Assembly: GCA_964401455.1 (NCBI GenBank)
Contig: CAYNYI010000001.1
Coordinates: forward strand, 1,245 to 65,244
Length of the DNA: 64,000 nucleotides
Direction: 5' to 3'
Origin: an uncultured Fibrobacterota bacterium
Lineage (GTDB): Bacteria; Fibrobacterota; OXYB2-FULL-49-7; CAYNYI01
In this document: positions 21,251 through 24,075 of the stretch, in pieces
How the letters are laid out: the number at the start of each line of letters is the position of its first letter
Numbering within the stretch: position 1 is the stretch's first letter
Translations under genes and position numbers: made by a program
The notes under the pieces: model-generated
What the model was told of the DNA's origin: nothing
Databases searched by the model: none
The model's input: only the letters and a program-made list of their open reading frames with translations

Positions 21251-22108
21251 ATGGGCAATTTATATATAAAAACATTTGAAATTTTTCTTTTTACTGCTTT
21301 CTTTTTATATTTTGCACATTCTGTTTCAAAAAAAGGATTAAGAAACACCATTTTTTCTGTTTTTCCCCTCCTGATATATGGCTGGATTCTCGAACAGGCT
21401 ACTATTTTATCATTTGAAGCGTATAGTTACAATGTAAGTGGTTTTATCTTTGTTATTATGGACGCTCCGCTCTGCATTGCCGCCGGTTGGTCGGTAATTA
21501 CAAACTTATGTATAGATATGGCATATTCTCTTGAGGGTTTGAAAAAGCCGGCTGTTCTGGCAGGCGTTTTCGGATTATTAATCGACTTTTCTATGGATGG
21601 CCTCGCTGTTTTTTACAGTTTTTGGAGCTGGGCTCCGGAAAAACAAGGTGTTGAACACCCTTTTTTCGGTGTCCCCGCCGGAAATTTCATGGCCTGGTTT
21701 ACCATAATAACATCATACGCTTTTTTCAAAGCATCTCTTTCAGAGAACATATATAAAAAATCCGCCGGATTCGCGCCCGTAATTATTTCTTTTATTACTT
21801 TGTTCATTGTGCTGACAGCTATTGACGTCTCAAAAATTGAACTCTTATTTCTTCATATACCCTGGTTCATTACATATGCTGCTGTAATTATACCTTTAAC
21901 AATCTTTTCTTCGATAAAGCTTTACAGGTCAAAAACCGGTCCATCACGAACTGTACATCTTCTATATGGTTCTTTTCACGCATTTTTCATTATTTACGCT
22001 GTCATTGCCGGCCTGAACGGCAACTGGCTTTATTTGCCTGTTGGAATTACCGCGTCTATCCCGGCATTCGCCGCTGTCGTCCCCGGTATTAAAAAAGAAT
22101 CAGGATAA
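21251..22108 (+). CDS. polytopic membrane protein co-transcribed with the UbiA prenyltransferase (function unknown)
   Basis: 285 aa, Trp/Phe-rich TM helices, 20 bp downstream of the UbiA gene. Possibly an isoprenoid-lipid or carotenoid-modifying partner; no motif was recognised confidently. Confidence 0.5.
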
Positions 22109-24075
22109 AAAGCTTTCGTCAAGGGTTTTAATACCAAGAGAAAGTGCTTTTTTAAGTTTTGAGCCGGGGTTTTCACCCACAAGAAGAAAATCCGTATTCT
22201 TTGATACAGTTCCAATTACTGAGCCACCCTGGCTTTCAATTATTTCTTTGGCATCCTGCCGGCTGTAAGAAGGAAGTGTCCCCGTAATTACGACTTTTTT
22301 GCCGGAAAAGAAACCAGAGGCAAATTTTTTTTCATCTCCCTTTAAATTAACCCCTGCTTTTTCAAGCCTTCTCAGGCGATTAATGTTTTCTTCATTATTG
22401 AAAAACCTTTTGATACTTTCCGCCGCTTTGGGGCCGATATCAGGCCATTCCGATATTTTTTCCGGAGAAAATTTTTCGAGATCAAAAAGATGATTTATTT
22501 TTGAGGAAATTGTTTTTGCCGTATTTTCTCCTATGTGTCTTATTCCCAGTCCGTGAATAAGCCTCCAAAGTGGATTGCTTTTTGAATTTTCTATGGAATC
22601 AAATAAATTATTGACTGATTTTTCTCCCATACGCGGCAGCGAAACGACATCCTCTTTTCTAATAAAATACAAATCCGCCCAGTCCTCAATAAGATGATTA
22701 TCCAGAAGAACCCGTACTATTTCCTCTCCGAGAGAGTCTATATTCATCGCGCTTCTTGACACAAAATGCTTCACCGCATTATACATCTTTGCGGGGCAAT
22801 CGTCCTCTTCACATCTTAGCGCGACTTCCCCTTTTGCAAACCCGGTTTTTCCGCCACAGACAGGACACTTTTCAGGAGGAGTTATTTCCTTTTCTTCTCC
22901 GGTTCTTACTGTATCAACAACATTAATGACCTTCGGGATTATCTCCCCGCCTTTCTGAATTTCAACAACATCTCCTTTTTTTATGCCGAGGCGGTTAATC
23001 TCGTCAAAATTGTGGAGAGTCGCTCTTGAAACTGTTGTTCCGGAAATTCTCACCGGATCAAGCTTTGCGACGGGCGTAATAACACCTGTGCGGCCCACCT
23101 GAAAACCGATATCATTTAATTTTGTTTTAACTGCCTGTGCCGGGAATTTAAAAGCCTTTACCCACCTGGGGCTTTTCGCGGTATAACCAAGCTCTTCCTG
23201 CAGTGAAAGAGAGTCCACCTTTGTTACAACGCCGTCAATTTCATAATCCAACTCTGTTCTCTTATGAGTCCATTCATTACAAAACTCAACCGCATCATTT
23301 ATAGATGAGCATTTACGAAAAAAGTCGTTTACCGGAAAACCAAGTTCTTTAAGCAAAGATAGGTTACCGCTGTGCGAACCGGTAAAAATTTTTCCTGATG
23401 CAAAATATGCAAAAAATTTCAGCTCTCTTTTCGCCGTCTCAGTCCAGTCCTTTAACTTCAAAGAGCCCGCGGCGGCATTTCTCGGGTTTTGGAAAACCCT
23501 TTTCCTTCTTCCTCAAGGCCTCTGTTGAGGCGCTCAAAAGTTTTATTGTCCATGAAAACTTCGCCCCGGACCTCAAAGTTTTCTAAAACACCGGCAACTT
23601 TTTTAGGCAGAGAAGAAACCGTTTTTACATTGGCTGTTACAAGGTCTCCCGTAGCGCCGTCACCTCTTGTCACCGCTCTCTCCAGTTTGCCTTTTCTATA
23701 AATAAGGGAGACAGCCAATCCGTCTATTTTTAATTCGGCTGTGAAAGGAACCGATTCCCGTCCGGAGTCTGACAGGATGTTTTCTCCCCATTCCCGCAGC
23801 TCTTCGGTGCTGTATGTATTGTCTATACTGAGCATCGGGGTTTCGTGCTTTGCTTTTTTAAAACCCGCCTTAAGGTCCGAACCAAAACCGGAAGCCGGAG
23901 AGTTTTCTACGGAGCCTGTTTCTTTTTCAAGCAGCTCAAGTTCTTTTTTCAGCGAATCATACTCATTGTCTGAGACCGGAGAGAAGTTCCGGCGGTAATA
24001 CAGGTCGTCATAGTTATTTATAAGCTGCCTGAGTTTATCGCGGCGTTTAATTTTTTCCGCATCAACTTTATTCAT
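22100..24075 (-). pseudogene. ligA: NAD-dependent DNA ligase LigA, interrupted by a -1 frameshift as sequenced
   Basis: The N-terminal ORF (23458-24075) holds the adenylation KxDG motif (ELKIDGLAV) and ends ...[18 protein letters not shown]. The adjacent frame continues [15 protein letters not shown]... through the OB, Zn-finger (CPVCGG), HhH and BRCT regions (22100-23461). The shift maps to an A4 run, plus-strand T-run 23487-23490. Confidence 0.8.

Follow-up and report, generated by a model that had tools for sequence, protein, structure and literature searches.

The window, a 64-kb stretch of DNA analysed here, is best explained as carrying an ordinary single-copy gene for an NAD+-dependent DNA ligase, ligA (22100–24075, minus strand), which in the sequence as written is divided between two open reading frames (ORFs) and becomes one gene once a single base is added. 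We consider it likely that the split arose from a local error in assembly or consensus, where read support is thin or strains are heterogeneous. The preliminary description of this DNA had given an artefact as one of two explanations; the integrity of the gene, the end of an independent contig at the site and an error in gyrB of the same assembly now make it the leading one.

Architecture of the ligA locus

The N-terminal ORF (23458–24075, minus strand; 205 amino acids) opens at an ATG at 24075 and encodes domain Ia and the N-terminal half of the adenylation domain, with the motifs AELKIDG and EVRGEV(F), before running into an out-of-frame tail. The C-terminal ORF (22100–23461, minus strand; 453 amino acids), which is called from a TTG at 23461, encodes the remainder of the adenylation domain followed by the OB, Zn finger, HhH and BRCT regions. 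The two are one base out of register, with the downstream ORF in the −1 frame, and its conserved reading runs upstream beyond the called TTG start and stays open down to 22100. Pfam matches follow the same division: the DNA_ligase_aden profile (PF01653) is matched over positions 2–134 in the 205-residue ORF and 144–253 in the 453-residue ORF, while PF03120, PF03119, PF12826 and PF00533 all lie within the latter in canonical order, and PF22745 matches in ligA below its gathering score. Thus all elements of a LigA protein are found, namely domain Ia, a KxDG adenylation domain, the OB domain, a Cys4 Zn finger, HhH and BRCT, with no single uninterrupted LigA reading frame in the sequence as written, the break falling between 23488 and 23512.

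Addition of one base yields a LigA protein of 658 residues with all six domains, which scores 898.6 bits over its full length when the base is added to make A5 at 23500–23503. The six modules are in the order known from E. coli LigA (PDB 2OWO) and Thermus filiformis LigA (1DGS/1V9P), and after the one-base addition the product is colinear with 2OWO (phmmer E-value 4.8e-150), aligning over residues 9–663 with an ungapped junction. The window departs from the E. coli and T. filiformis enzymes in its frame break, which falls after motif III (EVRGEV) and before NPRN. In a protein homologue search the nearest full-length relatives were only 48–49% identical, leaving aside a sister metagenome-assembled genome (MAG) described below. 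These results bear out the core of the preliminary description, which held that a one-base (−1) shift interrupts ligA, that the ORF with KIDG stops while the adjacent frame carries the OB, Zn, HhH and BRCT regions, and that one inserted base restores LigA: every feature it quoted is in place, the ORFs and Pfam matches agree, and the restored protein aligns across the junction without a gap.

Position of the missing base

A TGA at 23513–23515 blocks the downstream frame on its upstream side, and the invariant NPRN motif is read in that frame, so the lesion must lie within 23488–23512 (minus strand). Five runs are candidates, given here as minus-strand bases: A4 at 23500–23503, G3 at 23497–23499, T4 at 23493–23496, CC at 23491–23492 and A4 at 23487–23490. 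All five one-base repairs were built and scored against a hidden Markov model (HMM) of 119 full-length homologues (>600 residues). The repair to A5 at 23500–23503 scored best (898.6 bits), followed by G4 at 23497–23499 (GKGVFQNPRN, 897.3 bits), T5 at 23493–23496 (GKGFFQNPRN, 896.6 bits), C3 at 23491–23492 (GKGFSQNPRN, 892.6 bits) and A5 at 23487–23490 (GKGFSKNPRN, 891.9 bits). The alignment column preceding A/Q-NPRN holds Phe in 87 homologues, Met in 30 and Leu in 2, with Ser in 0 of 119, and E. coli LigA reads GGKVFANPRN at the junction, with which the A5 repair at 23500–23503 agrees. By homology, the missing base lies upstream of the invariant Phe codon. The lesion most probably sits in the A4 run of GGAAAAGGG (23500–23503, minus strand; T4 on the plus strand), or in the G or T run beside it; the first of these is the likeliest site, having both the best HMM score and the end of a contig from the independent Logan assembly. 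In the deposited consensus, GGAAAAGGG is followed by TTTTCCAAAACCC. The surrounding GGAAAAGGGTTTTCCAAAACCC (23484–23505, minus strand) is a series of alternating homopolymers, each 4 nt long, that together make up an inverted repeat, and occurs once in the window.

The preliminary description had placed the loss in another A4 run, that of CCAAAACCC (23487–23490, minus strand), which lies inside the permitted interval and where a repair would also regain the frame before NPRN. It is very unlikely that the base is missing there, whatever the cause. That repair is the lowest-scoring of the five, 6.7 bits under the best, and it puts Ser in a column that is Phe, Met or Leu in 119 of 119 homologues and Lys where Ala or Gln predominate. 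A comparison of run length at 23487–23490 gave the same answer, the run being read identically as plus-strand T4 with both flanks in three assemblies (the window, the sister MAG GCA_046542585.1 and the Logan contig, which ends at 23500–23503 instead), and it is probably correct as written. A 2-nt insertion in place of a 1-nt deletion was also considered and rejected, as the spacing of the invariant residues N184 and N197 after repair already equals that of the homologues.

Comparison with a sister MAG and an independent assembly

The 205-residue ORF is identical to MFP4520525.1 (‘hypothetical protein’, ACLFQK_00110) and the 453-residue ORF to MFP4520526.1 (LigA), both of which belong to the annotated sister MAG GCA_046542585.1 (JBKHBB01), a Fibrobacterota bacterium. 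The source assembly of the window is itself unannotated, and the sister MAG spreads the same region over shorter contigs. Contig 1 of the sister MAG carries the identical ligA split and, over 20,864 nt, shows 5 SNPs and 0 indels relative to the window; contig 17 adds 3 further SNPs over 5,311 nt, for a total of 8 SNPs in 26 kb. Outside the region of contig 17, the five coding SNPs comprise three synonymous differences and two amino-acid changes in a CHASE2 cyclase, and look like natural strain variation between the two MAGs. Within the CHASE2/guanylate-cyclase gene (24682–27591, minus strand), four of the five SNPs of this 20.9-kb comparison (S657S, R604G, P377Q and N354N) fall within 910 nt (25621–26530), a cluster that suggests a strain-variable segment or co-existing haplotypes.

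A third view of the locus came from Logan, an independent k-mer assembly of run SRR11308339 that contains the same organism at 100% identity. Its contig SRR11308339_56299 is 100% identical to window positions 16953–23503 (6.5 kb) and has as its final base the last T of the T4 on the plus strand, which corresponds to the A4 run at 23500–23503; the next contig, SRR11308339_123010, begins at 23549, where the preceding base is the third position of an Asp codon. At ligA, therefore, the sister MAG agrees with the window, and Logan, breaking at the run, neither bears out nor contradicts the window's reading. A de Bruijn graph would be expected to end a contig at 23503 if it branched there (C following T4, T for T5) or lost support; a SNP at 23504 or a chance gap in coverage would fit such an end as well. 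With Logan contigs of 1.5–6.5 kb, we put the chance that a random break would abut the 17-nt candidate region at roughly 1–2%, a rough estimate.

No assembly with an intact A5 version was found among protein, genome and metagenome-contig searches. A pattern scan with exact flanks and variable run length returned 0 GTDB species-representative genomes and 0 JGI metagenome contigs, and a protein search with a 110-residue junction peptide for an intact junction from the same species returned nothing above 59% identity. Exact-product look-ups of both ligA ORFs and the gyrB fragments found no match on record, nor did a literature search with the run and assembly accessions.

Sequence quality of the window

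The window's assembly is not error-prone in general. About 45 further ORFs were searched with Pfam and compared with what had been called as genes on the sister contig; among the roughly 55 genes of the 64 kb covered in this way, no further split gene was seen. The window contains 821 coding homopolymers of at least 5 nt, 113 of which are at least 7 nt long, and all are in frame. A platform that miscounts homopolymers would be expected to break these longer runs before a ligA run of just 4 nt, so that a miscall typical of the platform is a poor fit, and the generic homopolymer undercall put forward in the preliminary description loses ground accordingly. An error-prone long-read assembly was rejected on similar grounds, with no other broken gene among about 55 and all the longer coding homopolymers in frame.

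Local errors of another kind are nonetheless to be expected. In a curated 1.13-Mb MAG, 13 local assembly errors were described (Chen et al. 2020, Genome Res, PMC7111523), a density that corresponds to about 0.7 per 64 kb. The present case resembles the errors described there in being an isolated lesion in an otherwise clean contig, at a point where independent assemblies terminate, and in having a second lesion in the contig that is contradicted by a sister assembly. It differs in that their criterion was a consensus without perfect single-read support, whereas the ligA lesion is judged from assemblies and is shared by the sister MAG.

Interrupted ligA calls are also seen elsewhere. Other public metagenome assemblies contain many LigA adenylation-domain fragments of 65–120 residues on contigs of 26–84 kb. 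In a set of 17 short LigA fragments from assemblies other than the two MAGs, most of which lie on long contigs, F-x-NPRN is read through in every case and the break falls at some other point. Split ligA calls seem to arise repeatedly as artefacts of assembly or annotation, with a different break point each time.

The gyrB lesion and the origin region

A second interrupted gene, gyrB (57764–59680, plus strand), lies in the same window, with an in-frame TAA at 58712–58714, about 35 kb from the ligA split. Over the lesion (58704–58714, plus strand) the window reads GTT GAT ATA TAA (V D I stop) and the sister MAG GAT GAT ATA AAA (D D I K), so that two A-to-T changes in the window, 8 nt apart (58704 and 58712), substitute Val for Asp and a stop for Lys; the stop replaces the conserved basic residue of D(V/I)(R/K)EGL. 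Besides this pair, the only difference from sister contig 17 in 5.3 kb is an intergenic SNP at 62207. The lesion also lies near assembly breaks, a Logan contig ending at 58653 and sister contig 17 beginning at 58690. The stop is therefore specific to the window's assembly, while the sister version makes biological sense, and we regard the stop as probably due to a local error in the assembly from which the window derives. The contradiction by the sister MAG shows that the window consensus is locally wrong in at least one place, in the way proposed for ligA.

The preliminary description had stressed that two essential genes are interrupted within 36 kb. Both lesions are indeed present in the window, but the link between them is weakened by the sister MAG, which is free of the gyrB stop. 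In the comparison with related genomes that it had proposed as a check on ligA, the sister MAG shared the ligA split but lacked the stop in gyrB.

Several features of the region around gyrB were observed in passing. The G+C content is 0.30–0.32 over 52000–58000 (dnaA-dnaN-ORF-recF-dciA) against 0.38–0.44 across most of the rest of the window, and the cumulative GC skew has its minimum in the same interval, consistent with a replication origin adjoining rnpA/yidC/mnmE/mnmG/rsmG/parAB. Between dnaN and recF lies an ORF of 424 residues (55035–56309, plus strand) with no Pfam match, represented on a Logan contig by a gene of 421 residues. A homologue of DciA (PF05258) is encoded at 57408–57713 (plus strand), directly after recF and before gyrB, which indicates a helicase loader of the DciA type, not DnaC/DnaI, in this Fibrobacterota lineage.

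Origin of the ligA split

If the split is an assembly or consensus error, as we consider likely, the deposited consensus would be one base short, the lost base most probably being an A from an A5 run at 23500–23503 (minus strand); the reads would contain, or mainly contain, the A5 form, and the functional ligA of the living cells would be free of the lesion. Several lines of evidence point in this direction. The gene is intact after a one-base addition and shows no other visible degeneration, and both the HMM scores and the column counts from 119 homologues favour the A4, G3 and T4 runs, with A5 at 23500–23503 the best. The independent Logan assembly terminates exactly at the candidate run, and a second lesion in the same assembly, that in gyrB, is contradicted by the sister MAG. 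To these may be added the background rate of errors taken from PMC7111523 and the frequency of LigA fragments on long contigs in other metagenome assemblies. The main counter-argument is that the one-base gap recurs in the sister MAG, 8 SNPs away in 26 kb. The two MAGs may or may not share their reads, and a gap common to both means that the error would have to be reproducible or inherited.

This recurrence also speaks for a genuine one-base deletion allele in all or part of the population, with ligA a very recent pseudogene; the cells would then survive through a second ligase encoded elsewhere, through wild-type strains living alongside them or through leaky decoding. The five SNPs resemble natural strain variation, three of them being synonymous, and make co-existing strains plausible, and the Logan break at the run would fit an A4/A5 polymorphism. 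Such an allele nevertheless seems doubtful to us. Bacteria without another replicative ligase cannot do without LigA, which counts against it, and the search for a second ligase that the preliminary description had suggested found none within the 64-kb window by Pfam or ORF survey. With only one lesion and all catalytic motifs intact, inactivation would have to be extremely recent; moreover, a fixed, clean allele should assemble straight through in Logan, yet the Logan contig ends there. An older, decaying pseudogene does not fit, with a single lesion, all motifs and domains intact and a score of 898.6 bits after repair.

A functional ligase in two pieces can be dismissed. According to mutagenesis by the Shuman laboratory, NPRN reportedly contains an Arg that is essential in E. 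coli LigA. The motif lies in the −1 frame, and there is no ATG, GTG or TTG between the TGA at 23513–23515 and the motif; it is unreachable from any start codon. A separately translated second ORF would therefore lose NPRN, and the pieces cannot work apart.

A programmed −1 ribosomal frameshift, in which tRNA-Lys would re-pair on AAA in GGA AAA GGG (A_AAA_G) to give full-length LigA, is highly improbable. Motifs of the A_AAA_G type are slippery for bacterial tRNA-Lys, and a −1 slip at this one would yield exactly the best-scoring product; A_GGA_AAA resembles the phage lambda heptamer, and a purine-rich GAGGAAGAAGG tract lies just upstream of the site. However, the site does not conform to the canonical heptamer X_XXY_YYZ: with GAA GGA AAA GGG as the zero-frame codons, the slip is perfect in the A_AAA tetramer only, and A_GGA_AAA mismatches at the first position. 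The sole adjacent structure is a hairpin of −5.2 kcal/mol formed by the small inverted repeat GGGUUUUCCAAAACCC (23484–23499, minus strand), directly 3′ of the A4 run with zero spacer. No stable downstream structure was found at a spacing of about 5–9 nt (folding z-scores of −0.33 and +1.08 against shuffled sequences), and an Rfam search at the ligA site returned no family match. Among the homologues, 119 of 119 full-length proteins are single ORFs (a frame break in 0 of the 119 longer than 600 residues, the closest relative besides the sister MAG being 49% identical), and the fragments from other assemblies read through the motif.

The ligA site resembles the dnaX (A_AAA_AAG) and phage lambda G/GT (G_GGA_AAG) sites in having an A_AAA_G slip motif at a Lys codon with a purine-rich tract upstream; in contrast to them, it has no canonical heptamer, spaced stable structure, conservation among the 119 homologues or precedent, and we know of no frameshifting in ligA. 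The genuine slippery site that the preliminary description had offered as its other explanation is thus left without supporting structure, conservation among these homologues or Rfam match. Transcriptional slippage was set aside, a 4-nt run being too short for it. We give very little credence to the fuller proposal that the A4 run is true and dominant and that this deep-branching Fibrobacterota lineage relies, for the one replicative ligase it has, on tRNA-Lys slipping by −1 at low efficiency on GGA_AAA_G; were it true, this would be the first essential bacterial DNA ligase to depend on translational recoding.

Significance

Nothing that we found favours a real, dominant A4 sustained by recoding or by a back-up ligase. 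If the A4 were real and dominant, ligA in this organism would be a rare natural instance of an essential replication enzyme kept by one of these means. If, as is most likely, the split is an artefact of assembly or consensus, it matters for data hygiene only. The GenBank entries MFP4520525.1 (‘hypothetical protein’) and MFP4520526.1 (a truncated LigA) are the halves of one gene, the unannotated source assembly of the window would also carry a false stop in gyrB, and estimates of completeness and pseudogene statistics for this lineage should count neither lesion.
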